From an uncultured Methanosarcinales archaeon (lineage in GTDB: Archaea; Nanobdellota; Nanobdellia; Woesearchaeales; JAGVZT01), in assembly GCA_964354685.1 (NCBI GenBank), contig CAYHAM010000005.1, positions 9,942 to 73,941 on the forward strand: a DNA stretch of 64,000 nucleotides. Direction: 5' to 3'. Positions 2,357-58,575 of the stretch are shown piece after piece (the stretch's first letter is position 1; the number at the start of each line of letters is the position of its first letter). The position numbers were made by a program, and so were the translations under genes. The notes under the pieces are model-generated. The model did not search any database. It was not told the origin of the DNA and saw only the letters and a list, made by a program, of their open reading frames with translations.

Positions 2357-4120
2357 ATGACCAAAACAAAGCGTGCATTAATTTTTGTATTTTTGTTTTT
2401 GCTAGTGTTAGTTCTTCCTAACCTAGCCAATGCTGCTTTGAATTGTAGTGTCACTAATGAAACTTGTAATTATGCTAATGTTTTCCATATGTCTAATCTA
2501 AGTAATGCCCATGCTGAGCAGAGCAATGAGTCTGATTACAACTGGAGTGTTTGTTGTTATGATGACGAGGGTGTTGCAACCTTAGGAACAGGTTGTACCG
2601 AGTATTCTTATACAATACTACATTTGTCTAATTCAACCAATGCGCATGTTGAGCAGAGCAATGAGTCTGATTATGTATATAATGTTTGTTTGAATACAAC
2701 TCATGATGATATTTCATGTGTTTATGCCTCAAGTTGCAGTGGTTATGATACTTGTGTTGCTTCTATTTCTAATCACAAAGATGCTCATATTGGGGATTGC
2801 GTAACAGATCCTTACTCAATCTTGATTTGTTGTAATTTGCAGAGCAAGGGGGTTATATCAACTACTGTGGGCACACAACCATTTTACACTACTTCAAGTA
2901 ATCCTCAGACTTATTTGAATGAGTCTTGTTTGCAGAATATGAAAAAGGGTAATTCCTGCAATGTTACATGGAATGTTGTTCCAACTGGATTAATAGGGAG
3001 TATTTGGCAGTTCTTTACAATATTTGAATCAACAAATTATTCATCTTATGTTAGCCAGCAACACACATCAAAGGGTAATATCACTATTTCTGGTAATACA
3101 GCACCAAGTATCTCTACTCCAACTATTAATCCTGATCCTGCTTATACAGATAATGATTTATTGTGTTATGCTAATGCAACCGATGATTTTAACACAACCT
3201 TGACAATAGAGTATTGGTGGTATAATAGCAGCATTTTGTTCGCTTCTGGAAATTATACTGGCGCTAGCAATGGTTCTAACACTTTGGTAAACACTCTTGA
3301 TTCAAGCTATACTGTTAAAAATGAGACTTGGAACTGTACTGTTAGGGCTTATGATGGAACTGATTATTCTAATTATGCTAGTGCAACAAGGACTATTAGC
3401 AACTCATTGCCTGAACAAGTTGTTTTGGATTATCCTGAAGATAATGATACCACATTTACAAACAGAACTCCAAGGTATAATTGGACTAATGCAACTGATT
3501 TAGATGGTGATTCTATTAGTTATCATATTGAGGTTAGCAAGACTGAAAACTTTTCTGATGAGACTGTTAATGAGACAAGTATAACCAACAATTATTATGA
3601 CCAGCCAACAGAGCTTGATTTTGCAACCTATTGGTGGAGGGTTAGGGCTAATGACTCGGATGGTTATGGTGAATTCAGTGATGTTTGGAACTTTACATTA
3701 GTTACAAGCCCAACTATAACATTGGTTACTGATGTTGTAAATTTCACCAATATGGAGGTTGGAGAGTCAAATGATACCTCTGATAATAACCCAATACCCT
3801 TCAAGATACAGAATGATGGCAATATAGCAGCCAATGTTAGTGTTAATGCAACTGCTTTGTGGACAAGTAGTTATGCTCCTTTAAACACTTCATATTATCA
3901 GTTCAAAGCAAATTACAGTGATGAGGCTAACTCTTTTGATTATGCTAATTCAGCAACCACTTGGCAGAATATGTCTGATGTGAACAAGGATGTTGTGGCT
4001 ATTTTGAATCATACTGATGCAAATGATGTTGTTAATATTGATATTGGTGTATTGGTTGCATTGGATGAGCCTCCTAACTGGAAAACATCAAATGTTTTGT
4101 TTACAGCTGTGGAAACATGA
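2357..4120 (+). CDS. Cys-rich secreted glycoprotein with an internal NAHxEQSNESDY repeat and an FN3-like segment (YWWRVRA)
   Basis: Signal peptide, many CC and C-x-C motifs, dense N-x-S/T sequons. Its stop overlaps the next gene (ATGA). Confidence 0.45.
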   Translation: MTKTKRALIFVFLFLLVLVLPNLANAALNCSVTNETCNYANVFHMSNLSNAHAEQSNESDYNWSVCCYDDEGVATLGTGCTEYSYTILHLSNSTNAHVEQSNESDYVYNVCLNTTHDDISCVYASSCSGYDTCVASISNHKDAHIGDCVTDPYSILICCNLQSKGVISTTVGTQPFYTTSSNPQTYLNESCLQNMKKGNSCNVTWNVVPTGLIGSIWQFFTIFESTNYSSYVSQQHTSKGNITISGNTAPSISTPTINPDPAYTDNDLLCYANATDDFNTTLTIEYWWYNSSILFASGNYTGASNGSNTLVNTLDSSYTVKNETWNCTVRAYDGTDYSNYASATRTISNSLPEQVVLDYPEDNDTTFTNRTPRYNWTNATDLDGDSISYHIEVSKTENFSDETVNETSITNNYYDQPTELDFATYWWRVRANDSDGYGEFSDVWNFTLVTSPTITLVTDVVNFTNMEVGESNDTSDNNPIPFKIQNDGNIAANVSVNATALWTSSYAPLNTSYYQFKANYSDEANSFDYANSATTWQNMSDVNKDVVAILNHTDANDVVNIDIGVLVALDEPPNWKTSNVLFTAVET

Positions 4121-5316: not shown

Positions 5317-5361
5317 TAGCTAATATTCTTAGTCTAATGATTTTTAATTTTAAAATTATAA

Positions 5362-5407
5362 TTAGCGAGTTGCCAGTGTCTAACCACAATATTGGCAACT
5401 CGTGGTG
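5362..5407 (+). repeat. Hairpin element copy A (TTAGCGAGTTGCC-N19-GGCAACTCGTGGTG)
   Basis: 9-10 bp inverted repeat with a ~19-nt loop containing AACCACAA. Immediately follows the AT-rich TTTTAATTTTAAAATTATAA. Confidence 0.75.
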
Positions 5408-5477
5408 ATTATTATTGGTTTTTAACTAATAAGAGATGAACAAGGTGGTTTATAAGAAACAAGGGTTAATTAACAGA

Positions 5478-5543: not shown

Positions 5544-6242
5544 ATGGCTGAAGAGATTTCTAATAGAACATTGGCAATTATGTTGATTGTTGTTATGGCA
5601 ATATCTTTGGGAGGTACTATAATTAGCTTGAATAGGCTAACTCAATTGGGCTTTCCTGGTATAACAGGTGCTGCAACTGGCACAGGGACATCAACAGTGA
5701 ATATAACATCACAGGCATCGATAATTTTTCATGCTGGCAATAACACGGTTGCTTTTGGTAATGGATGGGTGAATAGCACAGAGAGCAGTGGAATTTGTGT
5801 TATGAGTGCTGTAAATAATAGTATTGGTACAATAAGTGCAGCTTGTAAAGGTAATTGGGCTGCTGGTAAGAGTGGGTTTATAATAGAAAACAATGGAAAC
5901 GTGAATCTTAGTGTTGAGGTTCATTCAGACAAAAACGCAACTGAGTTCTTAGGTGGTCAAACCTCTGGAACTAATAACATGAATTTCACTTTTAGGGCTT
6001 ACAACAATGAAACAGCATCATGCGCTTATATAAACGATAGTTGTAATAGTACTGTGTGGCTTGCTTGGCCAAGCGATGATGCAAAAACAGGGATTTGTAA
6101 TACCACTGGGGGTTTGGGTTATGATGACACTAAAGACTCAATGGTTATTGACCTTAACTTAAGCATAGACTACAGAACCAATAAAACTGGTAATGGTACT
6201 CAAACAGCAACAATAACAGCTACTGGTACTGCCCTTATTTAA
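5544..6242 (+). CDS. Secreted/surface paralog family protein (232 aa) with N-terminal signal-anchor
   Basis: About 85-90% identical to 6960..7661 and 9737..10441. Charged N-terminus, ~20-aa hydrophobic segment, many sequons. Ends TATITATGTAL. Confidence 0.55.
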   Translation: MAEEISNRTLAIMLIVVMAISLGGTIISLNRLTQLGFPGITGAATGTGTSTVNITSQASIIFHAGNNTVAFGNGWVNSTESSGICVMSAVNNSIGTISAACKGNWAAGKSGFIIENNGNVNLSVEVHSDKNATEFLGGQTSGTNNMNFTFRAYNNETASCAYINDSCNSTVWLAWPSDDAKTGICNTTGGLGYDDTKDSMVIDLNLSIDYRTNKTGNGTQTATITATGTALI

Positions 6243-6700: not shown

Positions 6701-6955
6701 ATGGCTCAAGAGGATATTCCAAAAAGGGTGATTTTTGTTCTTTTGATTTTGACAATTGTTATTTCTGTTTTAGGAACTTGGACTGTTCTGGATGCTGTAA
6801 GCAGTGCCCAGCCAAGGGCTTTGCCAAGCACAGCACAGGGTAATGTTAATATTAACATTTTACCACCAAATTCTGGTCAACAAGAACCTGCAATACAAAA
6901 AGCTGAAGCTCAAGGTGTTGTGGGTTTAACAATTCTTGAACAAAAAGGAGGATGA
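6701..6955 (+). CDS. Small membrane-anchored/secreted protein (84 aa), present in two identical copies
   Basis: MAQEDIPKR, then a hydrophobic helix, then a Q/P-rich tail. Identical to 9478..9732. Confidence 0.45.
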   Translation: MAQEDIPKRVIFVLLILTIVISVLGTWTVLDAVSSAQPRALPSTAQGNVNINILPPNSGQQEPAIQKAEAQGVVGLTILEQKGG

Positions 6956-6959
6956 TAGA

Positions 6960-7661
6960 ATGGCTGAAGAGATCTCAAATAGAACATTAGCTATTTTGTT
7001 GATTGTTGCAATTGCAATATCTTTGGGAGGCACGATAATTAGCTTGAATAGACTGACACAAATGGGTTTTCCTGGTATAACAGGTGCTGCACAAACTGAT
7101 ACAGGGACAGCAACTGTTAACATAACATCACAGGCATCGATAATCTTTCATGCTGGCAATAACACGGTTGCTTTTGGTAGTGGATGGGTGAATAGCACAG
7201 AGAGTAGTGGAATTTGTGTTATGAGTGCTATAAATTCTAGTGATGGTACAGTAAATTCGGCTTGTAAAGGTAGTTGGGCTGCTGGTTTGAGCGGATTTAT
7301 AATAGAAAACAATGGAAACGTGAATCTTACTGTTGAGGTTCATTCAGATAAAAACTCAACTGAGTTCTTAGGTGGTCAAACTTCTGGAACTAATAACATG
7401 GCTTTCACTTTTATGGCTTACAATAATGAATCAGCATCATGTACTAGTTTGAACATTACTTGTGATAATGAGTGGTTTGCTTGGCCAGATAATGATGCAA
7501 AAACAGGTATTTGTAATTCCACTACTGGTGGCTTGGGTTATGATGACACTAAAGACTCAATGGTTATTGACCTTAACTTAAGTATAGACTACAGAACCAA
7601 TAAAACTGGTAACGGCACTCAAACAGCAACAATAACTGCTACTGGTACTGCCCTTACTTAA
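6960..7661 (+). CDS. Secreted/surface paralog family protein; start probably the internal ATG (track ORF 6936 uses an alternative start)
   Basis: Alignment with 5544 places the start at MAEEISNRT. Confidence 0.55.
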   Translation: MAEEISNRTLAILLIVAIAISLGGTIISLNRLTQMGFPGITGAAQTDTGTATVNITSQASIIFHAGNNTVAFGSGWVNSTESSGICVMSAINSSDGTVNSACKGSWAAGLSGFIIENNGNVNLTVEVHSDKNSTEFLGGQTSGTNNMAFTFMAYNNESASCTSLNITCDNEWFAWPDNDAKTGICNSTTGGLGYDDTKDSMVIDLNLSIDYRTNKTGNGTQTATITATGTALT

Positions 7662-7703: not shown

Positions 7704-8855
7704 ATGAGATTATTTAAGAGTTTAGGGTTCTTTGTTGTTTTGGGAGTATTTTTTATTTTTGTTAGCCCATTTGCCTTGGGAGTGAGTATACAGCCTGCTA
7801 AGTATAGCATCAACTTTGAGCCCAATCTTGAAAAAGATTTTGGTTTTTACATTTGTGGTGCTGCTAAAATCGAGACTTATCTTGATGGAGATTTAGTAAA
7901 ATATGCAACAATCATAGATAATGAACCAAATAGCAGTTGTAGGGATATTGTTGTAAGAGTAAGATTGCCTAATAAAATAGAAAAGCCTGGTAAAAACATA
8001 TTGTTGGTTGGTGCCAAGGAATTGATAGAGGTTGGTAGTGGGGTGGCTGGCCGTGCTGCTATACAAGCACCAATTGTTATATTTGTTCCCTATCCTGGGA
8101 TGTATGTTGAATGGAATTTTGTAGCACCAAATGTGAATGAGGGCGAAACTGTGCATTTTATTGTATCTGTCAGCAACCTTGGAACTAATAACATCCAAAG
8201 CGCAAGGGCTATAATAGATGTTTATGATGATAACTCAAAAATAAAAAGTCTTAATACAGATGAAAAATCAATACCATCAAAAGAAAGCGCAGAGTTTCCT
8301 CTGGATATGGAAACAACAGGAATGAAGGCTGGTTCTTACAGGGTTGTTACAACCTTGTATTATGATGGGAGATCTGATTTAAAGGAGAAGTCTTTTAACA
8401 TAGGAAGCTTGTATGTGGCAATAAACAATTACACCAAGGTTCTAGAGCAAGGCAAGATCAATAAAGTTGGTATTGAGATTGAGAGTAAATGGAATAACAA
8501 TTTACAGGATGTTTATAGTGCGGTAACTATAAATGGTGTTAAGGTTAAAACACCAAACTATGACCTAAAGGCATGGGAGACAAAAGAGATAGCTGCTTAT
8601 TACGACACAACTGGAATGGACATCGGAGAGTATGATGCACAAATAACCTTGTATTATGGGGGAAAAACAACAACTGAAGAGGGAAAGGTTTATGTTGTTG
8701 AGCAGAGTGAAGTGCAAAGCTCTGAGGCAAAAGAGGAAAAACCATGGAATATAAGTTTTAATATAACACCAACTACCCTCTTAGTAGCTATAATTATTAT
8801 ATTGGTTGTTGTTGACATTGTGTGGTTGATTATAAGAAGGAAAAATAAAAGGTAG
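7704..8855 (+). CDS. Surface protein with signal peptide and C-terminal TM anchor (paralog of 4117..5316); start likely ATG at 7704 rather than TTG at 7683
   Basis: MRLFKSLGFF signal. C-terminal TM plus RRKNKR tail. Confidence 0.5.
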   Translation: MRLFKSLGFFVVLGVFFIFVSPFALGVSIQPAKYSINFEPNLEKDFGFYICGAAKIETYLDGDLVKYATIIDNEPNSSCRDIVVRVRLPNKIEKPGKNILLVGAKELIEVGSGVAGRAAIQAPIVIFVPYPGMYVEWNFVAPNVNEGETVHFIVSVSNLGTNNIQSARAIIDVYDDNSKIKSLNTDEKSIPSKESAEFPLDMETTGMKAGSYRVVTTLYYDGRSDLKEKSFNIGSLYVAINNYTKVLEQGKINKVGIEIESKWNNNLQDVYSAVTINGVKVKTPNYDLKAWETKEIAAYYDTTGMDIGEYDAQITLYYGGKTTTEEGKVYVVEQSEVQSSEAKEEKPWNISFNITPTTLLVAIIIILVVVDIVWLIIRRKNKR

Positions 8856-9477: not shown

Positions 9478-9732
9478 ATGGCTCAAGAGGATATTCCAAA
9501 AAGGGTGATTTTTGTTCTTTTGATTTTGACAATTGTTATTTCTGTTTTAGGAACTTGGACTGTTCTGGATGCTGTAAGCAGTGCCCAGCCAAGGGCTTTG
9601 CCAAGCACAGCACAGGGTAATGTTAATATTAACATTTTACCACCAAATTCTGGTCAACAAGAACCTGCAATACAAAAAGCTGAAGCTCAAGGTGTTGTGG
9701 GTTTAACAATTCTTGAACAAAAAGGAGGATGA
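9478..9732 (+). CDS. Small membrane-anchored protein (84 aa), identical copy of 6701..6955
   Basis: 100% identity. Confidence 0.45.
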   Translation: MAQEDIPKRVIFVLLILTIVISVLGTWTVLDAVSSAQPRALPSTAQGNVNINILPPNSGQQEPAIQKAEAQGVVGLTILEQKGG

Positions 9733-9736
9733 TAGA

Positions 9737-10441
9737 ATGGCTGAAGAGATCTCAAATAGAACATTGGCTATTTTGTTGATTGTTGCGATTGCAATATCTT
9801 TGGGAGGCACGATAATTAGCTTGAACAGACTGGCACAGGTGCGTGTTCCTACTATAACAGCTGCTGCATTAACAGACACAGGGACAGCAACTGTAAATAT
9901 AACATCTCAGGCATCGATAATTTTTCATGCTGGCAATAACTCGATTGCTTTTGGTAGTGGATGGGTGAATAGCACAGAAAGCAGTGGAATTTGTGTTATG
10001 AGTGCTATAAATTCTAGTGATGGTACAGTAAATTCAGCTTGTAAAGGTAGTTGGGCTGCTGGTTTAAGTGGGTTTATAATAGAAAACAATGGAAACGTGA
10101 ATCTTACTGTTGAGGTTCATTCAGACAAAAACTCAACTGAGTTTTTGGGAAATCAAACTTCTGGAACTAATAACATGAATTTCACTTTTATGGCTTACAA
10201 CAATGAAACAGCATCATGCGGTCAATTGAACGCTAGTTGTGATGATGAGTGGCTTGCTTGGCCAAATGGGGATGCAAAAACAGGAATATGCTTTAATACA
10301 TCTAATGGTGGCTTGGGTTTTGATGACACTAAAGACTCAATGGTTATTGACATTAACTTGAGTATAGACTATAGAACCGTTCTCACTGGTAATGGTACTC
10401 AAACAGCAACAATAACTGCTACTGGTACTGCCCTTACTTAA
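9737..10441 (+). CDS. Secreted/surface paralog family protein (third copy)
   Basis: Paralog of 5544 and 6960. Confidence 0.55.
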   Translation: MAEEISNRTLAILLIVAIAISLGGTIISLNRLAQVRVPTITAAALTDTGTATVNITSQASIIFHAGNNSIAFGSGWVNSTESSGICVMSAINSSDGTVNSACKGSWAAGLSGFIIENNGNVNLTVEVHSDKNSTEFLGNQTSGTNNMNFTFMAYNNETASCGQLNASCDDEWLAWPNGDAKTGICFNTSNGGLGFDDTKDSMVIDINLSIDYRTVLTGNGTQTATITATGTALT

Positions 10442-10601
10442 CTAGATTTTTTTATATCTTTTTTGTTTTTGGAAAAGAGAAAATGAGGTTATTTAAGGAT
10501 TTATTTCTATTATTAAAATTATGATTAGTAAGTTGCTATAAAACTAGCTAATATTATCTTCTATTAATATAATGATATTAATAACAAAATTTTTAATGAT
10601 A

Positions 10602-10647
10602 TTAGCGAGTTGCCAGTGTTTAACCACAAAATTGGCAACTCGTGGTG
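10602..10647 (+). repeat. Hairpin element copy B, preceded at 10525..10555 by a degenerate half-copy (TAAGTTGCTATAA)
   Basis: TTAGCGAGTTGCCAGTGTTTAACCACAAAATTGGCAACTCGTGGTG. Confidence 0.75.
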
Positions 10648-10835
10648 CGTCTATAATTAGATATTCTCCATGTGGTTTTTCTTATTGTTGATTATCAACT
10701 TTTTTAGCCAATTATTTGTTTATTGTTGATTTTCAACAATATTCCTTGTTTATATATAAACCAATATATGTTTAATATCAACAACAAAAGATTTATATAG
10801 GGGTTTTGTTGATTATAAACAACTGATGTGTTTTT

Positions 10836-22732: not shown

Positions 22733-22797
22733 ATTCGTAGATGACCAATACTTTTCTAAATAGAATTTTTAAATACACTTAAATATTAAAAATCATT

Positions 22798-22843
22798 TTA
22801 GCGAGTTGCCAGTGCTTAATCACAATAAAGGCAACTCGTGGTT
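22798..22843 (+). repeat. Hairpin element copy C (plus orientation)
   Basis: TTAGCGAGTTGCCAGTGCTTAATCACAATAAAGGCAACTCGTGG. Confidence 0.7.
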
Positions 22844-22880
22844 CGTCAGTTACAATCTTTTTCAGGAATAAATAAAAAGA

Positions 22881-22933
22881 ATCACCACGGGGTTGCATAT
22901 AACTTGGTTGTGAACAAGCAACCCCGCGAGTTA
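22881..22933 (-). repeat. Hairpin element copy C', inverted, with compensatory stem changes (CGGGGTTGC/GCAACCCCG)
   Basis: Reverse complement reads CTCGCGGGGTTGC-N21-GCAACCCCGTGGTGATT. Convergent with copy C. Confidence 0.65.
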
Positions 22934-26963: not shown

Positions 26964-27076
26964 AAAATGAAAAAGCCTCCGGAGGGAGTTGAACCCTCGA
27001 CCTGCGGATCACTTGCATAAGGGCTACAAGTTTCGGCTTTAGAAATCCGCCGCAATAGCCACTATGCTACGGAGGC
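26964..27076 (-). tRNA. tRNA-Arg (anticodon TCT) with a canonical-position intron (~30 nt)
   Basis: Reverse complement has GCCTCCG/CGGAGGC acceptor, GCGGA-TTTCTA-(intron)-A-TCCGC, and T-arm GAGGG-TTCAACT-CCCTC. Confidence 0.7.
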
Positions 27077-27094
27077 TTAGGGTAATGGATTAAA

Positions 27095-27115
27095 GCCTTG
27101 TTTATATAATTTTCT
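27095..27115 (-). promoter_or_regulatory. TATA box for tRNA-Arg (TTTATATAA about 25-35 nt upstream on the minus strand), preceded by GGATTAAAG
   Basis: The same GGATTAAA-N-TTTTATATA arrangement precedes tRNA-Asn at 30432..30450. Confidence 0.45.
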
Positions 27116-27148
27116 ATATGGTTTTTTAATTTTATTATAATAATCTAC

Positions 27149-27195
27149 TTTAGCGATTTGCTAGTGTTTAACCACAATAAGGGCAAATCGTGGTG
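27149..27195 (+). repeat. Hairpin element copy D (stem variant GATTTGCT/GGCAAATC) plus conserved tail 27196..27230
   Basis: TTAGCGATTTGCTAGTGTTTAACCACAATAAGGGCAAATCGTGGTG, then TGTTTCTCTATACCCAAGGTAGAAAGAAAC. Confidence 0.7.
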
Positions 27196-27323
27196 CTACT
27201 GTTTCTCTATACCCAAGGTAGAAAGAAACGACTGATAATTACACGCTTGATACTAGCATGCGGTAAATCACTCGTGAATTTAATAAAAAATTAAAATGAA
27301 GTCAACAATGATATTAAATATCT

Positions 27324-27929
27324 CTAACCAAACTTACGGTGTGGTTCCCACAAGAGCTCGCTTTCAGGTATGAACTTCTTCCTTTCTAGGAAGTTTTTGA
27401 TAACGCCTTGAAGGCGGTAAGCATCCTGTAGTAATAGCTCTTCTCTTTTTAGCATGTCTTCTTTAAATATTCTCTTTTGAAAGAAGGTGTTGAAGTGTTT
27501 TAATATTGGGTGCTTTGCCCACCTATCTTTGTAGTCATATTCTATCCAGGGTTTTATTGATATTGTTATTTCTCCATGTTGTGCCTTGTATTTTTCTCCC
27601 TCATGCATGACCTCAACATCTCTTGAACCTAACATCATAAAGTTAACGTTCATAAAATAGCGATAGTAACTGTTGCCTGTTGGCTTTTGCAGCCTCCACC
27701 ACACCCACAGCTTTTTATTACCAGGTGCGTGGTTGTCATATAATAAGGTTTCCTCGTACTCATCAGTTGTTGTTTCTTCCCAAGGGCCATTGCAGGGAAT
27801 CCAGCCCTCCTCGCGCCACCACGAGTGCATTGCAATGTAAAGGCTCTTTAAGTGAAAGACCTCTTGGTAAATCAGAACAAGATAATTGTGGGATTCTGGT
27901 TGAACATATATTCGGTTGTGATGGCTCAT
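27324..27929 (-). CDS. Hypothetical Trp/His-rich protein (201 aa) with locally elevated GC
   Basis: ORF only. Composition differs from its neighbours. Confidence 0.35.
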   Translation of the reverse strand: MSHHNRIYVQPESHNYLVLIYQEVFHLKSLYIAMHSWWREEGWIPCNGPWEETTTDEYEETLLYDNHAPGNKKLWVWWRLQKPTGNSYYRYFMNVNFMMLGSRDVEVMHEGEKYKAQHGEITISIKPWIEYDYKDRWAKHPILKHFNTFFQKRIFKEDMLKREELLLQDAYRLQGVIKNFLERKKFIPESELLWEPHRKFG

Positions 27930-27990
27930 ATTAGTCTTTTTTTTTGATTACACATATATAAATTTTTCGTATATCAGTATATATATCCCA

Positions 27991-29553
27991 TCATTTATAA
28001 TCTGCAAGGCTGATTTGGCCTTTTCTTTTTCTTGGCTTTACCTTTATCTTTGACTCAGCATAGTCTTGTCCAACTTGTTGCTTGATGTCAATTGCAATGC
28101 GCTTTCCCAATAGTTGAGTTAGGGTCATAATATTTGCGCTTTTAACATCTGCTATTGTTCTTACCTTGTTGTTGTATAGCCTTCTTGCTCTTACCCTACC
28201 TATGTTTCTGAGCTTTAATAAAGGAAGCAACTCTTCTTTTGCACCATGCTTTATCCTTAATCTTGTTTTGATTAGCTCTTTTAATAATGGTTTTAGTTGT
28301 AGGATTCTTGCAATCTCGTATGAAGAGTAGAGTAACCAGTCTGCTATCTCAAGCTTTACTCTAAGTTCGCCAGGTCTGATATCATATTTCTCTAATAGAT
28401 ATTCCTCTTCTTTTTCCTCAATCCAATCATAGAACATTAAAGCTGTTTTTATTGAGTTTAGAAAGTCTTCATACTCTGGGTCGTACAATGAAGGTTCATT
28501 TGACAAAATGATGTTGTCATATTCAACAATCTTTTCTTGGGTTTGCTCCCATTCTTTTGTTTTTACTCTGAGCAATGGCCTCATCTCAAGTGTTTGGGAT
28601 ATTATTTGTAGGAAGGAGAATTCTCTAACAAGCTTTGTTTTTGCTCTTTTTTGGCAAACAACTATTTGGTGTGCTGTTAGTGGATCAAGGTAGAGTTGTG
28701 CCACTCTTTTTCCAAGGTTTGTTGCATTTATGCATTCTTTGTCAAGTTGTTCTGCTGATACAAACTCTTTTCTAGAGGTTTTTATGAATTCCCATTCTTC
28801 TAGTTGTCCTAGTGTTTTTGTTATTATCTTCCTTAGCTTGGGCATGTCCTCAAACTGCATTGCCCAGAATGTTTTTGAGAAGAAGTCAAAGATTTGTTGC
28901 TTTGTTTTTACAAAATCCGTTGCTATTAAAGATAAGAGGTATGTTCTCAGAACTGGTTCTACTGCTAATTTCGAGTAGATTTCTTCTGGTTCTCCAAGGA
29001 TGTATTTTTCATAGATGTTGTTTTTTTCTGCACTTGAGGTTGCTATTGAAATTGCTTCGCCATATTTGTCAAAGCTTGGTCTGCCTGCTCTGCCTGCTTG
29101 TTGATGGTATTCCAAAACAGGTATCCAGTCTAAGCCATGATGTCCATATCTTTTTAGGTCTCGGATTATTGTTCTAAATGCTGGCAAATCTACGCCAGCT
29201 GCAAGTGTTGGTGTGCAGCATATTATTTTTATTGTGCCTTTTCTGAATTCATCTTCTATTAGGCTGCGCTGCTTTTGAACTAAGCCAGCATGGTGGAATG
29301 CAATTCCTTTTTTAGCAACCTCTGCAAGCCTTTCACATTGTTTTGTTGGTTTTGAGAGTGCTTTTAGGAGTTGGGTGGATAGCTGTTCATATTTTGGATC
29401 TTTTGTTTTGATCTTTTTTGCTATGTCTTCTGCACATTTTTCTGCACTGCGCTTTGTGTTGACAAATATTAATGCTTGTTTATTTTTTTTGGTTGTGTCT
29501 AATGCGAGGTCAATTACAGGGTTTGCAGTTATTTGCTCTATTTTCGTTTTCAT
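27991..29553 (-). CDS. Hel308/Ski2-like helicase, C-terminal two-thirds only (RecA2, winged helix, ratchet, HhH); RecA1 not encoded here
   Basis: Motif VI QQAGRAGRP. Helicase-C region IICCTPTLAAGVDLP. Begins at the RecA2 boundary. Confidence 0.65.
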   Translation of the reverse strand: MKTKIEQITANPVIDLALDTTKKNKQALIFVNTKRSAEKCAEDIAKKIKTKDPKYEQLSTQLLKALSKPTKQCERLAEVAKKGIAFHHAGLVQKQRSLIEDEFRKGTIKIICCTPTLAAGVDLPAFRTIIRDLKRYGHHGLDWIPVLEYHQQAGRAGRPSFDKYGEAISIATSSAEKNNIYEKYILGEPEEIYSKLAVEPVLRTYLLSLIATDFVKTKQQIFDFFSKTFWAMQFEDMPKLRKIITKTLGQLEEWEFIKTSRKEFVSAEQLDKECINATNLGKRVAQLYLDPLTAHQIVVCQKRAKTKLVREFSFLQIISQTLEMRPLLRVKTKEWEQTQEKIVEYDNIILSNEPSLYDPEYEDFLNSIKTALMFYDWIEEKEEEYLLEKYDIRPGELRVKLEIADWLLYSSYEIARILQLKPLLKELIKTRLRIKHGAKEELLPLLKLRNIGRVRARRLYNNKVRTIADVKSANIMTLTQLLGKRIAIDIKQQVGQDYAESKIKVKPRKRKGQISLADYK

Positions 29554-29555
29554 TT

Positions 29556-30107
29556 TTACAGCATACTCAACACCCTCTCAGCAAAGTGTGTGAAGAGGAA
29601 TAGGTTTATAAGCATGTTTAATGTGAAAGAAATAATACTATTTATTGGATTAAAGCCTAAAGCTAATATGTAAGTGGTATGAATAACTAAGTTAAAGACA
29701 AGTGTTAATATTATGCCTGCTATTGATACATTCAAACCCAAAAGAAGAAAAGAGAGCAAACAGATTATGAAGTAGGCAGCTATTTGAATAAACATTGGGA
29801 TGCATAGGCGTCCATTGAGAATTGAGCCAATAATTAACATGGTTGTTGCTGCAAGCATTGCAAACAATGGAGAAAAGGCAAAGCAAAATATTATTGTTAT
29901 GAATGTTATGAGCTCAAATCCCAATGATAGTTGAATGAACCTTTTCCAAAATATTGAGATTATTCCAATTGAGATTAGTAACAATGTTAGGATTATTGCT
30001 TTAAATCTTTGGAAGAGTATTAAAATAATGAGAATTGATACAAGTAGAATAACATACTTCTTGATGTAATTTTTAGCATCCTGTGATAATACGTATTTGT
30101 TTATCAT
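29556..30107 (-). CDS. Hydrophobic membrane protein (183 aa)
   Basis: About 6 TM helices. Confidence 0.35.
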   Translation of the reverse strand: MINKYVLSQDAKNYIKKYVILLVSILIILILFQRFKAIILTLLLISIGIISIFWKRFIQLSLGFELITFITIIFCFAFSPLFAMLAATTMLIIGSILNGRLCIPMFIQIAAYFIICLLSFLLLGLNVSIAGIILTLVFNLVIHTTYILALGFNPINSIISFTLNMLINLFLFTHFAERVLSML

Positions 30108-30170
30108 TTTTTAATATACAAATATTCTAGATTGGTTTATAAGTATTGTGTCAGAATGTTTTGTGAAAAA

Positions 30171-30303
30171 TGGGCCCGCGGAGACTTTCACTTTTAAAGT
30201 TTTGAACTCCGGACCACCCGATTTCTAAAGCTTTTATCAGTCGGGCACTCCAATACCCAATCTTTTACTTCTGTAAAAGTTTACCAGGCTAAGCTACGGG
30301 CCC
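30171..30303 (-). tRNA. tRNA with multiple non-canonical introns (tentatively Ile, anticodon GAT)
   Basis: Acceptor GGGCCCG/CGGGCCC. Anticodon stem CCCGA/TCGGG, loop CTGATA+A. T-stem CGGAG/CTCCG with TTCAAAA loop plus 16 extra nt. D-region insert of about 30 nt. Confidence 0.5.
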
Positions 30304-30329: not shown

Positions 30330-30413
30330 CGCCCCGGGCCAGGTTTGAACTGGCGACCTTGCGGTTTCTAGGCAAGCTAACAGCCGCACGCTCCACCACT
30401 AAGCTACCGGGGC
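30330..30413 (-). tRNA. tRNA-Asn (anticodon GTT) with a 12-nt intron at 37/38
   Basis: GCCCCGG/CCGGGGC acceptor. TGCGG-CTGTTA(intron)A-CCGCA. T-arm GCCAG-TTCAAAC-CTGGC. Confidence 0.65.
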
Positions 30414-30431
30414 TTAGGGATATGGATTAAA

Positions 30432-30450
30432 TATCCTTTTATATAGTTTT
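30432..30450 (-). promoter_or_regulatory. TATA box for the tRNA-Asn / tRNA-Ile dicistron
   Basis: GGATTAAATATCCTTTTATATAG upstream of 30413. Confidence 0.4.
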
Positions 30451-30539
30451 CTATATATTATGTATATAAATGGTAATTTTTGTTTTATTAATAGAATTAA
30501 CGAGGTTGCTATTATCCTTTTTTTATTTTAATATAATAA

Positions 30540-30585
30540 TTAGCGAGTTGCCAGTGCTCAACCACAAAAAAGGCAACTCGTGGTG
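30540..30585 (+). repeat. Hairpin element copy E, preceded by half-copy at 30489..30508 (AACGAGGTTGCTATTA)
   Basis: TTAGCGAGTTGCCAGTGCTCAACCACAAAAAAGGCAACTCGTGGTG. Confidence 0.75.
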
Positions 30586-30696
30586 ATGGTGTTTGTAGAT
30601 ACCCTATGTATAAAGAGACTATAAAGAGACTATAAAGAAACAAAAGAATTTAACGATAGTTTTATATATAAAATAGGTATTTAGATTCTTGAAAAA

Positions 30697-39662: not shown

Positions 39663-39709
39663 GGCTTGGTTCTATTTATTTTTAGTATTTATTATGGTCC
39701 AATTTAAAA

Positions 39710-39755
39710 CTAGCGAGTTGCATGTGTACAATTACATGTTCTGCAACTCGTGGTG
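39710..39755 (+). repeat. Hairpin element copy F (stem variant GAGTTGCA/TGCAACTC)
   Basis: CTAGCGAGTTGCATGTGTACAATTACATGTTCTGCAACTCGTGGTG. Confidence 0.65.
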
Positions 39756-39772
39756 CTATATCTTGTATTTGC

Positions 39773-45669: not shown

Positions 45670-47541
45670 TTATTTCTTAAAAAACTCTTCCAACCTCTCC
45701 TTATACAGCTTTGTTATTACTATCTTCCATGTTTTTGGGAAGCACCTATAGTAGTGCTGCCAGGAGTAGCGTTCATCCAGGAATATTATAGCACCTCTGT
45801 CTGTCTCAGATCTTATAACCCTGCCTGCATTTTGCATTGCCTTGTTCATTGCAGGGAATACATAGCCATAATCCCATCCTTTGCCGAACTTTTCGTCATA
45901 GTAATCAATAAGAGCTTTTGTTTCCAAATCTGGAACTTGTAATGGCAAGCCTGCAACAACTGCTGCTTTTAGAAAATCTCCTGGCAGGTCAATGCCTTCT
46001 CCAAATGAGCCTGAGACAACTGCTAGCATTACTGCTCCTTGTTTGCTGTATTTTTTGAATTTGTCAAGAAACTCGCGTTTCTCGCGTTTGCTCATGTTTG
46101 ATATTTCTAAGAATGTTGTTTTTTTGCAGAGCCTTGTAAAGGTTTTATCTACCTTATCTCTGATTTCATAGCTAGGAAAATAGATTATTGTGTTACCAGG
46201 GATTGTATTAGCCAAATCTGAGGAAATTTCTGCTATTCTTTTGTATTGCGCTGCATTCCTTTCAGTGTATTTAGTTGTTGTCTCTGGAATTATTAGTGTT
46301 AGCTTGTTCTGCTCTGGAAATGGGCTCTTGTACTCTTGCATTTCTGCGTGCTCAAAGCCAAGAATGTCATTGTACATTGTTATTGGTGTTAATGTTCCGC
46401 TCATTACAATTGTTGAATAGGCATTATCTACAACCTGTTTTGATATCAAGCTTGGGTCAAGGCATCTATAACTCAAGGTTATAAAAGGTTTTTTGAGTTG
46501 TTTTTTGGAGATTATTCTTACAAAGCCAGAATCTTGTCCGAGCCATGCGTCAAGGAATTTTGATATAGAGCCAATATAGCTTTGCTTTTCTGTCTCGCGT
46601 ATGTCATCTGCAACAAATGCAAAGTCTGCTATTAATTGGTTGTATTCAGAGAACTCCTCGATCTCATTAATGAAATCCTGTTTCTTTGTTAGCTTTTCAC
46701 TGTTTTCTAAGCCATGTGCAAGTTCTTCAATTAGGGATTTTATTTTTTCAAGGTTTGATTTTGTTTCTTCATAGCCAAATTTTTTTGCCTCTCGGATTGC
46801 TCTGTCAAGCATGAACGTGGATAAGCGCTGTGTCATTAAATCACGCAATCTAAAAGGCAGGTTGTGGCCTTCATCAACAATTATTATTGATTTTTCTAGC
46901 TCTTTTCCAGTTTTTTTAAAGAATAAGTCTCTTATCTGGGGATTAAAAATATAATAATAATCTGTAATAACAACTAATGAGTCTTTTGCAAGTGCTGTTG
47001 CTAGTTCATATGGGCAGAGCTTTTCTTGTGCACATATTTTTATTAACTTTTCAGAGTGTGTTGGGCTAATCTGTTTAAGCTCTTTTAGAACCTTTTTTGC
47101 ATTTGGTGTTAGTCTTCCCTTTTTTCTTGTATTCAAGTAAAATTCACACTTATCCTCTTCTCTGACTGCTTTACAATAGTCTGCAAACTCGTTTGAGTAG
47201 AGATTTTCCACTCCAGGCACAGCACACATCCATTTTTTGCCAACAATGTCTGTTGTTATAATATCTAAATCATACTTTTCTTTGATTGCCTTCAGTGTTT
47301 CAATTGCAATAAGGTGTTGGGTGTGCCTTGAGGTTAGAAAGAATATTGTTAAATCTTTTTTGGTTGCATGTTTTAGTGCAGGGCTTAGCATTGCAACTGT
47401 TTTTCCTAGTCCTGTTGGAGCATGCACAATAAAGTTTTGTTTTTTTTCTAGGGTTTCATCTACTTTTTTTATAAGCTCATCTTGGGTTTGTCTTATTTTA
47501 GAAAAAGGAAAGAAAAGTTCCTCAAGTTTCTTATCTACCAT
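45670..47541 (-). CDS. xpd: XPD/Rad3-family 5'-3' DNA helicase with FeS domain
   Basis: Walker A HAPTGLGKT. DEAH box VDEGHNL. Four-Cys cluster (C..C..C..C) between motifs I and II. Confidence 0.8.
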   Translation of the reverse strand: MVDKKLEELFFPFSKIRQTQDELIKKVDETLEKKQNFIVHAPTGLGKTVAMLSPALKHATKKDLTIFFLTSRHTQHLIAIETLKAIKEKYDLDIITTDIVGKKWMCAVPGVENLYSNEFADYCKAVREEDKCEFYLNTRKKGRLTPNAKKVLKELKQISPTHSEKLIKICAQEKLCPYELATALAKDSLVVITDYYYIFNPQIRDLFFKKTGKELEKSIIIVDEGHNLPFRLRDLMTQRLSTFMLDRAIREAKKFGYEETKSNLEKIKSLIEELAHGLENSEKLTKKQDFINEIEEFSEYNQLIADFAFVADDIRETEKQSYIGSISKFLDAWLGQDSGFVRIISKKQLKKPFITLSYRCLDPSLISKQVVDNAYSTIVMSGTLTPITMYNDILGFEHAEMQEYKSPFPEQNKLTLIIPETTTKYTERNAAQYKRIAEISSDLANTIPGNTIIYFPSYEIRDKVDKTFTRLCKKTTFLEISNMSKREKREFLDKFKKYSKQGAVMLAVVSGSFGEGIDLPGDFLKAAVVAGLPLQVPDLETKALIDYYDEKFGKGWDYGYVFPAMNKAMQNAGRVIRSETDRGAIIFLDERYSWQHYYRCFPKTWKIVITKLYKERLEEFFKK

Positions 47542-55428: not shown

Positions 55429-55569
55429 TGTAGTGTCAATATAAAGTTTAAAAGTTTATAAACCTTGCTGTGTGTGGATATATGAAAATGTTACTTTTAT
55501 TATTATAATAATTAGCGATGTTGCTATTAAAATACTCATTTTTATTACAAAATTATTACAAAAATTATA

Positions 55570-55615
55570 ATTAACGAGTTGCCAGTGTTCAATCGCATAA
55601 AAGGCAACTCGTGGT
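55570..55615 (+). repeat. Hairpin element copy G, preceded by half-copy at 55512..55530 (TTAGCGATGTTGCTATT)
   Basis: TTAACGAGTTGCCAGTGTTCAATCGCATAAAAGGCAACTCGTGGTG. Confidence 0.7.
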
Positions 55616-55687
55616 GATGTTGTTTCTATTTGCTTAGGTAATGAAGAGATAACAGATTTTCAAAATCTTTATAAATCAAACTGATAT

Positions 55688-55882
55688 TTGGGTGGTGTTA
55701 AGATGGATAGGGAGCAACCTGTTGATCCTTATAAGGAGATTATGGAGAATATTGACTTGCTTAGTCCTGTTAAGAGATGTCCAAAGTGTAATGCCTTGAC
55801 TTTGCAATATGATGAGAAGAGTGGCAGAATATATTGTGAGGATTGTGGCTTTGAGAGATTCTTGCCAAGAGTGAAAAAATGA
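55688..55882 (+). CDS. Small zinc-ribbon protein (64 aa)
   Basis: CPKC-x14-CEDC. Overlaps the start of the first EamA gene. Confidence 0.4.
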   Translation: MGGVKMDREQPVDPYKEIMENIDLLSPVKRCPKCNALTLQYDEKSGRIYCEDCGFERFLPRVKK

Positions 55883-56769
55883 GTTGGTTAATTTTTGCTT
55901 TGTTGGCTGCTTTGTTTTTTTCTATTGGTTATATCCTTGACAAAATCCTGCTTGATAAACATTTTAAGCATCCACTTACATTGCTCGTTTTCAAAACCAT
56001 TATCTGGCTGAGCATATGGTTAGTTTTGCCTTTTACTGGATTTAGTATCCCTAGCAAAGAGTTGTTGTTCTTTATTATTGTGATTAGCTTGATTGATACA
56101 CTAGCATTTTTACCTTTTTTAAAGGCTATGTCGTTGGAGGAGGCATCAAGGATTGCACCTTTGCACGAGCTTCGGGCAGTTGTTGCCTTTGTGTTGGCTT
56201 TTTTGTTTCTAGGGGAGAGATTGAGTTCTAATCAGTTGATTGCGTTTGTTCTGATTCTTATTGGTGGATTTATTATCTCAGTTAAGGATGTTAAGGGTAT
56301 TTTCAAGATTAGAAGGGCATTTTGGTTGATGTGCTTGGTTATTGTAATGCGGGGGACCAACATAATTCTTCTTAAATATCTTTTTACTAATGCAGAGTAT
56401 TGGTCTGCCATTGCTCTCCTCATGTTGTTTGATTTTTTCATAGCCATTTGTTTTTTGGTTATTAAGAGCATAAGGTCTGAATTTTTAAGGACGTTTAGAT
56501 CTGGTAAGAGTATTTGGTTGTTGATAATTGCAAATGGTTTGATGTACATAGGTGGTATTCTCGCGAATAATTACGCGCTCAAGAGTGGACCTGCATCAAT
56601 CATTTCTGTTATAGGTGGGGTTAGAACCTTGTTTGTTTTTTTGATTGCAATATTGATTTCGAGGTATCTACCTAAAGTTTTAAAAGAGGAGCTTAGTTGG
56701 AATGTTTTGTTAGTGAAGATCATCGCTATTGGAATGATATTTGTTGGATTGTATTACTTGTATATTTGA
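55879..56769 (+). CDS. EamA/DMT-family transporter (paralog 1 of 3)
   Basis: 10 TM helices. Duplicated EamA-domain pattern. Confidence 0.6.
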   Translation: MSWLIFALLAALFFSIGYILDKILLDKHFKHPLTLLVFKTIIWLSIWLVLPFTGFSIPSKELLFFIIVISLIDTLAFLPFLKAMSLEEASRIAPLHELRAVVAFVLAFLFLGERLSSNQLIAFVLILIGGFIISVKDVKGIFKIRRAFWLMCLVIVMRGTNIILLKYLFTNAEYWSAIALLMLFDFFIAICFLVIKSIRSEFLRTFRSGKSIWLLIIANGLMYIGGILANNYALKSGPASIISVIGGVRTLFVFLIAILISRYLPKVLKEELSWNVLLVKIIAIGMIFVGLYYLYI

Positions 56770-56772
56770 GGA

Positions 56773-57669
56773 ATGAAAATGGATTGGTTGATATTTGCTT
56801 TGCTGGCACCTTTTTTGTGGAGCTTTACGAATATATTGGACAGAATTTTGACTTCAAGATATGTAAATCCAATGCATTATATGATAATCGGTGGTTTTAC
56901 ATGGTTGGCTAATTTGGTGTTTTTCCCTTGGTCAAATCTTAAGATTATTAGCCTCACTTTTGTTTTGCTTGTGCTTCTTGTTGGGTTGCTGAGAATATCC
57001 ACTTTTTTGTTTTATCTCAAGGCAATGCAGATAGAAGAGGCATCTATAGTGGCTCCTTTAGGTAATCTGAGTACTTTGTTTATTTTGATTATGTCTGCTG
57101 TTTTTTTGAAAGAGATCTTAACTAAAAATCAATTAATTGCATTTTTCTTGATTTTGATTGGTGCATTTATACTTAGTGTTAAGAAGGCAAAGGGTCTGTT
57201 TAAGTTGAGAAAGGCTTTGTGGTTTATATTGATAAACACTTCTCTGTGGGCGGTTTCTTATGTGTTGTTGAAATTTGCCTACAAATATGTGACATTGTGG
57301 GATGCTCTTGTGCTGATAGCTATTGGAGAGGCACTTGGTTGCTTTCTTTTGTTGTTAAATAAAAAACAAAGAGACAGCTTTGTAAAGAATGTAAAAAGAT
57401 ACAAAAGAAATGTGTGGTTGCTAATAGCGGTAAGTAGTTTTTTTGCTATCTTGGGAGGATTGGCTTCATGTGCTGCAATTTTGCTTGGTTCAGTTTCACT
57501 AGTTTCAGTTGTTGGTGGGTTCCAAGGATTATTTGTTCTTATCATGGCATTGTTGCTCTCAAAATATTTCCCTAAAATATTGAAGGAAGAGTTGGATAGA
57601 AAAGTATTACTAACCAAGTTTGTTGCAATTGCTTTGATGATCATAGGATTATATTTTTTGAATTTATAG
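56773..57669 (+). CDS. EamA/DMT-family transporter (paralog 2 of 3)
   Basis: Conserved C-terminus PKILKEEL..LL.K..AI..M..GLY.L. Confidence 0.6.
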   Translation: MKMDWLIFALLAPFLWSFTNILDRILTSRYVNPMHYMIIGGFTWLANLVFFPWSNLKIISLTFVLLVLLVGLLRISTFLFYLKAMQIEEASIVAPLGNLSTLFILIMSAVFLKEILTKNQLIAFFLILIGAFILSVKKAKGLFKLRKALWFILINTSLWAVSYVLLKFAYKYVTLWDALVLIAIGEALGCFLLLLNKKQRDSFVKNVKRYKRNVWLLIAVSSFFAILGGLASCAAILLGSVSLVSVVGGFQGLFVLIMALLLSKYFPKILKEELDRKVLLTKFVAIALMIIGLYFLNL

Positions 57670-57678
57670 GAGATAAAA

Positions 57679-58575
57679 ATGGAATGGGTATTTTTTGCAG
57701 TGTTGGCAGCGTTGCTGTGGGCTGTTGAGAGTGTTGCTGATAAGATAATAATAAGCAAATTCATTAAGGATCCAAGTGTTATGACAATTATTTGGGGTTT
57801 TTTGCAGCTTCTTGTCTTCTTTGTGTTGCTGTTTCATAATTTGGATGTTAGTAATGGTCTTATAATTTTATTAGCAATAATTAGTGGTATGATCGGCATG
57901 CTTGCAGCTGTACCTTATTTCAAAGCTTTGAACCTTGAAGAGGCCTCTCGTATTATTCCAATCATATATTTTTCCCCATTAATTGTTTTGATTTTATCAT
58001 TTATTTTCTTGGGTGAGAGGTTGGGTTTTATTCAGATTATTGCATTTTTTTTGATTCTTATTGGTGGATTTTTGCTGTCATTGAGGAATATTAAAGATAT
58101 GTTTACACTAAAGCGAGCATTTTGGCTAATGGTGTTTGTGGCTTTTTTGTCTGCAGTTTGGCAGATATTAATGAAGCATGTGTATTCAAATATCACTTTT
58201 TTAGATGGATTTTTTTGGTTTAAGATAGGGGGATTTTTTGGGGGCATTATATTGTTATTGTTGAAGAAAAACAGGGTGTCTTTTATTCAGAACTTACAAA
58301 CAATCAAAAGCAAGGTTTTTATTTTTGTTATGTTAGGTGTAGGGTTAGTATCTCTCGCAGATAGTTTAAGTTATGGTTATGCTATTAAGCTTGGTCCTGT
58401 TTCATTAGTTTCTGTTTTGGATGGGATAGCACCTTTGTTTATTTTAATAATAACTATCCTATTATCAAAATACTTACCAAAAATACTTAAAGAGGAGATA
58501 GATAAGAAAATTTTATTAACTAAAGCGTTTGCCATTGCTCTAATGATTGTGGGGTTGTGGTTTTTGTACATATGA
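57679..58575 (+). CDS. EamA/DMT-family transporter (paralog 3 of 3)
   Basis: Same as the two preceding paralogs. Confidence 0.6.
   Translation: MEWVFFAVLAALLWAVESVADKIIISKFIKDPSVMTIIWGFLQLLVFFVLLFHNLDVSNGLIILLAIISGMIGMLAAVPYFKALNLEEASRIIPIIYFSPLIVLILSFIFLGERLGFIQIIAFFLILIGGFLLSLRNIKDMFTLKRAFWLMVFVAFLSAVWQILMKHVYSNITFLDGFFWFKIGGFFGGIILLLLKKNRVSFIQNLQTIKSKVFIFVMLGVGLVSLADSLSYGYAIKLGPVSLVSVLDGIAPLFILIITILLSKYLPKILKEEIDKKILLTKAFAIALMIVGLWFLYI

Follow-up and report, generated by a model that had tools for sequence, protein, structure and literature searches.

Why would an archaeal gene encode only the C-terminal part of the DNA helicase Hel308, and where is the rest of the motor? The question is raised by a 64,000-nucleotide (nt) stretch of low-GC DNA (about 35% GC) from contig CAYHAM010000005.1 of an uncultured archaeon that GTDB places in the Woesearchaeales (assembly GCA_964354685.1); we refer to this whole stretch as the window. 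Names of homologs likewise point to a DPANN archaeon of the Woesearchaeota type. One of its open reading frames (ORFs), 520 amino acids (aa) long and lying between tRNA genes, resembles Hel308 from the second RecA-like domain (RecA2) onwards and lacks the first (RecA1), the domain with the Walker A and DEAH motifs. An initial annotation, made by reading the sequence alone, left two possibilities: the N-terminal half is encoded elsewhere, as in the split genes described for Nanoarchaeum, or the gene is a truncated remnant on an acquired segment. Our analysis favours the former. The 520-aa ORF, we consider it probable, encodes the C-terminal subunit of a two-gene Hel308/Hjm that characterizes a large clade of Woesearchaeota, in which two chains would together form the motor. 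Below, the two parts are called the N-half and the C-half.

A Hel308 sequence that begins within RecA2

The domain content of the 520-aa ORF is that of Hel308 after its first domain. Pfam recognizes Helicase_C (E = 6e-15), the winged helix (HTH_61, 27.7 bits with a cut-off of 24.3), the ratchet domain (Helicase_dom4_arc, 109 bits, E = 1.7e-31) and a helix-hairpin-helix (HhH) domain (HHH_5), the last at 25.2 bits and thus slightly below its cut-off of 27; the alignment to Protein Data Bank (PDB) structures nevertheless reaches residue 711 of 720. The ORF aligns to residues 228–711 of Pyrococcus furiosus Hjm/Hel308 (2zj2, E = 2e-93) and to residues 237–677 of Archaeoglobus fulgidus Hel308. All of the C-terminal Hel308 motifs are present, namely LIFVNTK, motif IVa (FHHAGL), motif V (TPTLAAGVDLPA) and motif VI (QQAGRAGRP), and Pfam finds no DEAD domain. 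The initial annotation had listed QQAGRAGRP, the winged helix, the ratchet and the HhH as present and the Walker A/DEAH half as absent, and Pfam, the PDB alignment and the motif sequences agree with it on each count. Scores against NCBIfam models tell of the same partial likeness: 451 bits against PRK02362 (equivalog cut-off 887), covering positions 222–715 of 739, and 327 bits against the helicase_Hel308 model NF040935 (cut-off 1200). Measured by the single-chain definition of Hel308, the ORF has every C-terminal feature and falls short on RecA1.

The point at which the protein begins differs from the one first proposed. In Hjm, domain 1 comprises residues 1–197, so that residue 198 is the first of domain 2 (PMC2636818); W198 is the tryptophan of the sequence WRPVKL. 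The description of a helicase beginning exactly at RecA2 holds in that RecA1 is missing and the protein runs from RecA2 onwards, but its start lies ~17–20 residues inside structural domain 2, leaving RecA2 without its first ~19 residues.

The missing half is not found in the window. Searching it by tblastn with the RecA1 domains of A. fulgidus and P. furiosus gave no Hel308-type RecA1 (best E = 2.4), and the sole other superfamily 2 (SF2) Walker A detected by a scan for Walker A and DExH motifs belongs to a complete XPD helicase of 623 aa (45670–47541). Nor is there room for RecA1 immediately upstream, as had been noted at the outset: the TAA stop codon of an ORF for a membrane protein is followed by 2 nt and then by the helicase ATG, and the helicase reading frame upstream of this ATG is crowded with stop codons. 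A frameshift or assembly error that hides an upstream RecA1-coding region, a condition named initially as one that would overturn the idea of a split, does not account for the gene. An assembly artefact is excluded because an independent Logan assembly (contig L001) reproduces the junction between the membrane ORF and the helicase, and the window has no RecA1 coding to be joined. The composition of the helicase gene is ordinary for the window (GC z = 0.2).

Two stand-alone families that tile Hel308

Stand-alone C-halves form a large family. The counts given here for the C-half and N-half families refer to the best 120 matches of each, each family comprising thousands of database clusters. The best 120 homologs of the 520-aa ORF are 60–78% identical to it, measure 510–578 aa (median 518) and are without a DEAD domain; they come from Woesearchaeota/Nanoarchaeota metagenome-assembled genomes, on contigs of up to 272 kb. 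Their start point is common, with methionine as the first residue in 119, and the motifs are kept: FHHAGL-type motif IVa in 119/120 and Q..GR[AS]GR motif VI in 120/120. An exhaustive search of representative sequences again returned stand-alone C-halves as the nearest relatives. Several relatives of ~1,000 aa proved to be stand-alone C-halves with an intein (Intein_splicing and LAGLIDADG_3 domains). A LAGLIDADG intein interrupts motif V in P0121 (C...HN between TPTL and S) and motif VI in P0122 (C...HN between EQQ and CGRAGRP), and an ORF in locus L052 is a further intein-bearing relative. The inteins imply that these stand-alone C-halves are translated and under functional constraint.

A complementary family holds the missing domain. 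We built a RecA1 profile from the closest full-length Hel308 proteins (P0140, P0155, P0157 and P0164, 45–48% identical), and its matches were nearly all DEAD-only proteins of 219–225 aa; the best 120 included about 110 such proteins of 215–235 aa (median 221) from the same lineage. These stand-alone RecA1 proteins are from Woesearchaeota, are 57–65% identical to P0140 and occur on contigs of up to 439 kb. One of them was found identical on 17 contigs from many samples; it is complete and, in the longer contigs, has neighbours on both sides. The N-half motifs are as well kept as those of the C-half, with a PTASGKT-type Walker A in 118/120, DE[IV]H in 120/120 and SAT in 119/120.

The two families fit together end to end. 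Fused Woesearchaeota Hel308 genes (L017–L021) were verified as single ORFs of ~700–725 aa, and in an alignment to L017–L020 and P0140 the N-halves end with ...IEF[YF] and the C-halves begin 2–4 residues later; the two families tile the fused protein with no overlap and no loss. Coverage of PRK02362 is likewise complementary, positions 1–217 being matched by an N-half (281 bits) and positions 222–715 by the 520-aa ORF. Since the N-halves run ~19 residues past the position of Hjm W198 (WRPVKL), the break lies inside structural RecA2, with the first strands of that domain on the N-subunit. An AlphaFold2 (AF2) model of an N-half (predicted local distance difference test score, pLDDT, 91) has a β-hairpin tail at residues 210–219, and all of its 220 residues superpose on Hjm (2zj5) with a template modelling (TM) score of 0.90 and a root mean square deviation of 2.0 Å.

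Motif conservation of 98–100% in 120 + 120 sequences, uniform lengths and the inteins of the C-halves indicate, at the level of sequence, that both Hel308 halves are under purifying selection and that the 520-aa ORF is not a truncated remnant. The suggestion that an N-half is encoded elsewhere is thereby supported for the family, through the ~221-aa RecA1 proteins, the tiling and one N/C pair described below; for this particular genome, the window is without RecA1.

Database names give little hint of this relation. The halves are currently called 'helicase-related protein', 'hypothetical protein' or 'DEAD/DEAH box helicase', probably because each scores under the NCBIfam equivalog cut-off (451 and 281 versus 887). 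Thousands of Woesearchaeota/Nanoarchaeota proteins with vague helicase names would then be the two subunits of one Hel308, and surveys that look for both DEAD and Helicase_C in a single protein, or that demand NCBIfam equivalog scores, will record Hel308 as absent or partial in these organisms.

Pairing of the halves and origin of the fission

Do the two halves occur in one genome? The most direct evidence comes from one pair, the N-half P0375 and the C-half P0071: exact copies of both occur, on different contigs, in two independent assemblies, ENA ERZ27248895 and Logan SRR8437217, and these contigs match in composition (r = 0.98; GC 0.352 versus 0.359).

Several observations weigh against a two-subunit Hel308 or leave its history incomplete. 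The N-half of the present genome was not recovered, the 64-kb window holding no RecA1, and co-occurrence of the halves in one genome comes from the single pair above, at the level of samples. A pairing of P0295 with P0090 had no samples in common, and the contigs of P0046 and P0370, similar in length (22,498 versus 22,488 nt), are different contigs from different samples. P0033 and P0282, each with a longest contig of 6042 nt, were considered as a possible single contig and rejected, the match being coincidental. Comparing the GenBank accessions of N- and C-halves for proximity gave no overlap among named entries. When a synthetic N+C fusion was used as query in a scan of GTDB genomes, which ranks by coverage, all 80 loci proved to contain fused Hel308, which served to identify fused Woesearchaeota relatives. 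A metagenome scan ranked in this way gave a like result, and its 80 best loci included no intermediate with adjacent ORFs. In a quick neighbour-joining tree, one half contains all 38 of the bona fide split forms, together with the few fused Woesearchaeota genes; fused genes are scattered among the split ones, and the tree does not tell one fission from several. Finally, the presence of the N-subunit in this genome, like the association, expression and activity of the subunits, is something that we infer from sequence.

The split appears to be derived and not ancestral, with fused forms in other Woesearchaeota. Neighbourhoods vary between the halves and between genomes; in the loci L002, L003/L004, L098–L101 and L109 the sets of neighbours overlap. 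RIO1, KH and Topo VI B/A genes are found near the N-half in L003 and near the C-half in L002, a gene for PRPP synthase near the C-half in L002 and near the N-half in L098, and SRP54/FtsY adjoins the N-halves in L098 and L109. Such shared neighbours hint that the two halves once belonged to a single ancestral locus and were dispersed afterwards. The window shows no synteny with the half-bearing loci L002 and L003, and a 181-aa ORF before the N-half in L003, considered as a counterpart of the 183-aa membrane ORF of the window, is not homologous to it. Among the metagenomic contigs with a fused Hel308 is L135 (Ga0233437_1000005, 788,373 nt), with a protein 55% identical to the N+C query; it is possibly a near-complete DPANN genome and would be useful as an outgroup for dating the fission.

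A putative two-chain motor

How might two such chains work as one helicase? In the arrangement that we propose, the Hel308 gene would have undergone fission, with the N-subunit of about 221 aa encoded at an unlinked locus. This subunit would contribute the RecA1 motifs Q, I, Ia, Ib, II and III and the first ~19 residues of RecA2 (WRPVKL and then the β-hairpin), and the C-subunit the remainder of RecA2 (motifs IV, IVa and V, and motif VI with its arginine fingers) together with the winged-helix, ratchet and HhH domains. The two polypeptides would associate non-covalently, strand complementation by the tail hairpin of the N-subunit completing RecA2 in the C-subunit. RecA1 would dock on the winged-helix and ratchet domains as it does in the single-chain ring; in Hjm, the tunnel is formed by domains 1, 3 and 4 (PMC2636818). 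The ATP site would thus be assembled in trans, from Walker motifs A and B on one chain and motif VI on the other, and the heterodimer would translocate 3′–5′ on single-stranded DNA (ssDNA) like ordinary Hel308. In the window, tRNA-Asn, tRNA-Ile, the membrane ORF, the C-half and a 201-aa ORF (ORF201) form a co-oriented string, in that order, and the C-half is probably expressed from this string (with or without the membrane ORF), presumably by co-transcription. A natural SF2 helicase with its ATP site between chains would offer a system for studying RecA1–RecA2 coupling and the relation of annealing to translocation in Hel308/HELQ.

A bolder extension, which we hold to be rather unlikely, is that fission made Hel308 a machine of two components that can be regulated. 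On its own, the C-subunit would act as a DNA-binding or annealing module, ATP-driven translocation would start only on docking of the separately expressed RecA1, with the β-hairpin tail as a latch, and ORF201 might serve as an accessory factor. If this were true, a natural split motor would uncouple the annealase and translocase activities that are debated for Hel308/HELQ.

Other explanations

The two halves might instead be functionally independent, the C-half being an ATP-independent DNA-binding or strand-annealing protein that works through its RecA2, winged-helix, ratchet and HhH domains and the N-half having another role or other partners. They are indeed unlinked and sit in differing, variable neighbourhoods; in one Woesearchaeota sub-clade ORF201 is a conserved neighbour peculiar to the C-half; and Hel308/HELQ proteins have been described as annealases, with domain 5 and motif IVa governing annealing (PMC13623763; PMC10484726). 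Arginine fingers kept in motif VI of 120/120 C-halves, the conservation of motif V and the near-invariant Walker A and B of the N-halves are, however, hard to explain without a joint ATPase site, and exact tiling with the first strands of RecA2 on the N-half would be structurally pointless unless the halves came together again. We therefore regard independence as unlikely. Reassembly need not be non-covalent: mRNA trans-splicing or a split intein could join the halves after transcription or translation into a single-chain Hel308, and Nanoarchaeota do join tRNA halves in trans (PMC3491384), just as inteins are known within the C-half family. Against this, the N-halves stop right after ...EF[YF] and the C-halves start with methionine (119/120), with no spare sequence on either side. 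Typical split-intein halves are ~100 aa and ~35 aa long, and exact tiling of the fused protein by the two ORFs leaves no room for them; a Hint/intein domain is absent from both the 520-aa ORF and the N-half P0375. Covalent joining thus seems to us very improbable.

Equally slight is the chance that the gene is a truncated remnant or pseudogene on a horizontally acquired, tRNA-bounded segment. It would fit the position between tRNA genes, an ORF201 that is extreme for the window in GC and GC at third codon positions (GC3), and a membrane ORF specific to the lineage of the window. A remnant would not be expected to persist as a conserved stand-alone form with intact motifs and inteins, with the same end points in the copies of its relatives; the composition of the helicase gene is typical, and gene order and flanks are conserved in the relative L106 (52–78% aa identity). 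The segment has neither an integrase nor an att-like repeat, the repeats that it does have being a tRNA promoter/leader and members of a dispersed family, and PHROGs has no match to ORF201, to the membrane ORF or to either of two further ORFs next to them. We give still less credence to an assembly or frameshift artefact, or to an anti-phage module in which a Hachiman HamB-like helicase is accompanied by two accessory ORFs. PADLOC models of HamB match the RecA2 region with up to 87 bits, and HamB is among the PDB matches; the Hel308 model, however, scores 451 bits against those 87, and the flanking ORFs have no PADLOC match and hence provide no HamA-like partner. The artefact is opposed by the junction repeated in the Logan assembly, by the stops upstream and by the absence of RecA1 coding from every frame of the window.

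Comparison with known systems

The closest comparison is with archaeal Hel308/Hjm itself (2zj2, 2p6r and 2va8), with which the C-half shares sequence, the domain order RecA2, winged helix, ratchet and HhH, and the C-terminal motifs, and which the N-half family matches in domain 1 (TM 0.90 to 2zj5). The difference is that here two unlinked genes are involved, with the break ~19 residues inside domain 2.

Split genes are known from Nanoarchaeota and other DPANN archaea, among them those for reverse gyrase (NEQ318/434), a large helicase-related protein (Lhr, NEQ003/409), DNA Pol I, AlaRS and Dph2 (PMC3655853, Table 1; PMC6349945). The Hel308 case is alike in concerning an information-processing enzyme, in having two dispersed ORFs that between them make up a protein encoded in one piece in relatives, and in occurring in archaea with reduced genomes. 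On these grounds it would fall within the definition of a DPANN split gene, the two halves having been seen together, at the level of samples, for one pair in relatives. It differs in several respects. Hel308 is absent from the published split-gene lists that we compared, as far as these sources were accessible (PMC3655853, PMC6349945); its split is found in mesophilic Woesearchaeota and in a very large clade (thousands of clusters), in contrast to one or two genomes; and it cuts through the SF2 motor so that the ATP site would lie between chains, Lhr being left out of this comparison. No account of a DPANN Hel308 split into two genes came to light in the searchable literature, including a survey of archaeal Ski2-like helicases (PMC10946056) and a 2026 review of Hel308/HELQ. 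A conserved split Hel308 would accordingly join a known class of DPANN split genes and would not amount to a new principle. It would mean that fission of informational genes reaches beyond Nanoarchaeum and its extremely reduced lineage, and that fission of Hel308 can become fixed in a very large mesophilic DPANN clade, with sister Woesearchaeota retaining fused genes.

Three other systems offer partial likenesses. Cas3′/Cas3″ and other naturally split helicase systems distribute the function of a helicase over two polypeptides, but those splits part the helicase core from an accessory nuclease domain, whereas in split Hel308 RecA1 is parted from RecA2. Integrated elements and islands targeted to tRNA genes resemble the present segment in that it is flanked by tRNA genes and has one ORF of atypical composition; they differ in that the Hel308 segment lacks an integrase and an att repeat and its gene order is conserved in relatives. 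Hachiman HamAB differs in that the likeness to HamB is confined to RecA2 (87 bits) and that PADLOC finds no HamA (DUF1837) neighbour.

The C-half locus and its neighbours

The layout of the locus (Table 1) is largely as first described. The segment between the tRNA genes (27077–30170) contains three ORFs of at least 50 aa that are not nested in longer ones, and they agree with the initial annotation in position and length. It had also placed tRNA-Arg at one end of the segment and a tRNA-Asn/tRNA-Ile pair at the other; Rfam recovers the Arg and Asn genes, both with introns, and ARAGORN the Ile gene after editing of the sequence.

Table 1. Features of the Hel308 C-half locus and copies of the 51-nt hairpin repeat; positions are those of the window.
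Feature	Position	Strand	Length	Evidence or remark
Probable C-terminal subunit gene of split Hel308/Hjm	27991..29553	(-)	520 aa	Pfam; 2zj2 alignment; PRK02362
ORF201, function not assigned	27324..27929	(-)	201 aa	61 nt downstream of C-half, same strand
Multi-pass membrane ORF	29556..30107	(-)	183 aa	ORF list and hydropathy; between tRNA-Ile and C-half
tRNA-Ile(GAU), three insertions	30171..30303	(-)		ARAGORN with insertions removed; alignment to relatives' tRNA-Ile
tRNA-Asn(GUU), 13-nt intron	30330..30413	(-)		Rfam RF00005, 56.6 bits
tRNA-Arg(UCU), 32-nt intron	26974..27076	(-)		Rfam RF00005, 56.5 bits
51-nt hairpin repeat copy by tRNA-Arg	27148..27198	(+)	51 nt	Pattern search; covariance model R1, 74.3 bits; folding
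51-nt hairpin repeat copy by tRNA-Asn	30538..30588	(+)	51 nt	Pattern search; covariance model R1, 76.4 bits; folding
51-nt repeat, strong copies	5360-5410, 10600-10650, 22796-22846, 27148-27198, 30538-30588, 39708-39758, 55569-55619	(+)		
51-nt repeat, weak inverted copy	22880-22932	(-)		

Is the locus an acquired island? tRNA-Asn(GUU), tRNA-Ile(GAU), the C-half and ORF201 follow one another in the same order in the relatives L106 and L107, with C-halves 62–68% identical, and L106 is collinear with the window through genes for TruD, LPG synthase, GH116, VWA, DUF58 and MoxR proteins (52–78% aa identity). Among the three ORFs of the segment, Pfam, NCBIfam, PHROGs and PADLOC detect no integrase or recombinase, and no att-like direct repeat of a tRNA 3′ part is present at the far end of the segment. 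The only long direct repeat (27059–27119 and 30396–30456, 80% identical) covers the 5′ ends of tRNA-Arg and tRNA-Asn with ~45 nt upstream; the upstream part contains a TATA box and a conserved leader, GCTTAGGGnnATGGATTAAA, which suggests that the two tRNA genes share a promoter/leader module. The notion of a truncated remnant on an acquired segment is contradicted by the stand-alone form conserved in the best 120 homologs, the synteny in L106 and L107 and the lack of integrase and att site. The C-half locus is ancestral, and its helicase is a vertically inherited housekeeping gene and not part of an island. tRNA-Arg lies outside the conserved unit; it has no counterpart at this position in L106, where a methyltransferase gene and a 134-aa ORF separate ORF201 from TruD.

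The membrane ORF, with about 5–6 hydrophobic segments by hydropathy, is an insertion, the only element specific to the lineage of the window. It is absent from L106, L107, L002, L097 and L103, and in L106 and L107 tRNA-Ile directly precedes the C-half with no membrane ORF between them. It has no match in Pfam, NCBIfam, PHROGs or PADLOC.

ORF201 was rightly singled out as compositionally atypical: no other ORF of the window is as high in GC (z = 2.0) and GC3 (z = 2.6), and Trp and His abound in its product. Its homologs number 15 and are about 200 aa long, one being truncated at 136 aa, and every one with a named source is from Woesearchaeota. Directly 3′ of the C-half stand the ORF201 genes of L106 (10001–10609, gap 41 nt) and L107 (5384–5995, gap 35 nt), and wherever the context is known the family is just downstream of a Hel308 C-half. 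The protein may be an accessory factor of the Hel308 C-subunit. Its AF2 model (pLDDT 75) combines a β-sheet with a long C-terminal helix and has no significant match in the PDB, with a faint START/helix-grip-like resemblance as the nearest (best E = 5.6e-3, TM at most 0.31); Pfam, NCBIfam, PHROGs and PADLOC gave no match.

The tRNA-Ile gene is unusual in its three insertions, of ~31 nt in the D-loop, ~12 nt in the anticodon loop and ~16 nt in the T-loop. Standard ARAGORN and Rfam miss it; with the insertions removed, ARAGORN calls tRNA-Ile(gat). The tRNA-Ile genes of L106 (~8300–8406) and L107 (~3524–3650) share the anticodon-loop and T-arm insertions and lack the one in the D-loop, which is therefore a recent gain. 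tRNA counts of such genomes will be underestimated.

Hairpin repeats and paralogs in the window

The initial annotation had seen a hairpin just outside each end of the tRNA-bounded segment, an arrangement that did not hold. Both hairpins lie on the high-coordinate side of their tRNA genes, so that the copy by tRNA-Arg is inside the segment and the one by tRNA-Asn outside, and they belong to a family with seven strong copies in the window (Table 1). In the 51-nt repeat a 10-bp stem carries a 19-nt loop, and GTGGTG forms a tail on the 3′ side; all seven strong copies are intergenic, each preceded by an AT-rich, TATA-like box, and a pattern search gave 5 copies where 0 were expected. The stem remains paired in 98.8% of cells and shows 3 compensatory pairs, a number reached in 1 of 500 shuffles. 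The CCAC of the loop could pair with the 3′ GTGG, making a pseudoknot possible, and four copies share a further semi-conserved stretch of ~40 nt downstream.

The repeat has no match in Rfam or IMG/VR, and an exact pattern search found none in 108 loci; a covariance model gave one weak match in 17 relatives' loci. It could represent a family of small-RNA genes, or else a hairpin element of ssDNA similar to REP/PATE.

The window also contains paralogous ORFs in two sets, both on the (+) strand. Three low-Lys paralogs of 232–242 aa, 80–88% identical, lie at 5544–6242, 6936–7661 and 9713–10441; the one tested (5544–6242) has no Pfam match, and two copies of the hairpin repeat adjoin this set. Three tandem paralogs of 296–298 aa, 38–42% identical, occupy 55879–56769, 56773–57669 and 57679–58575.

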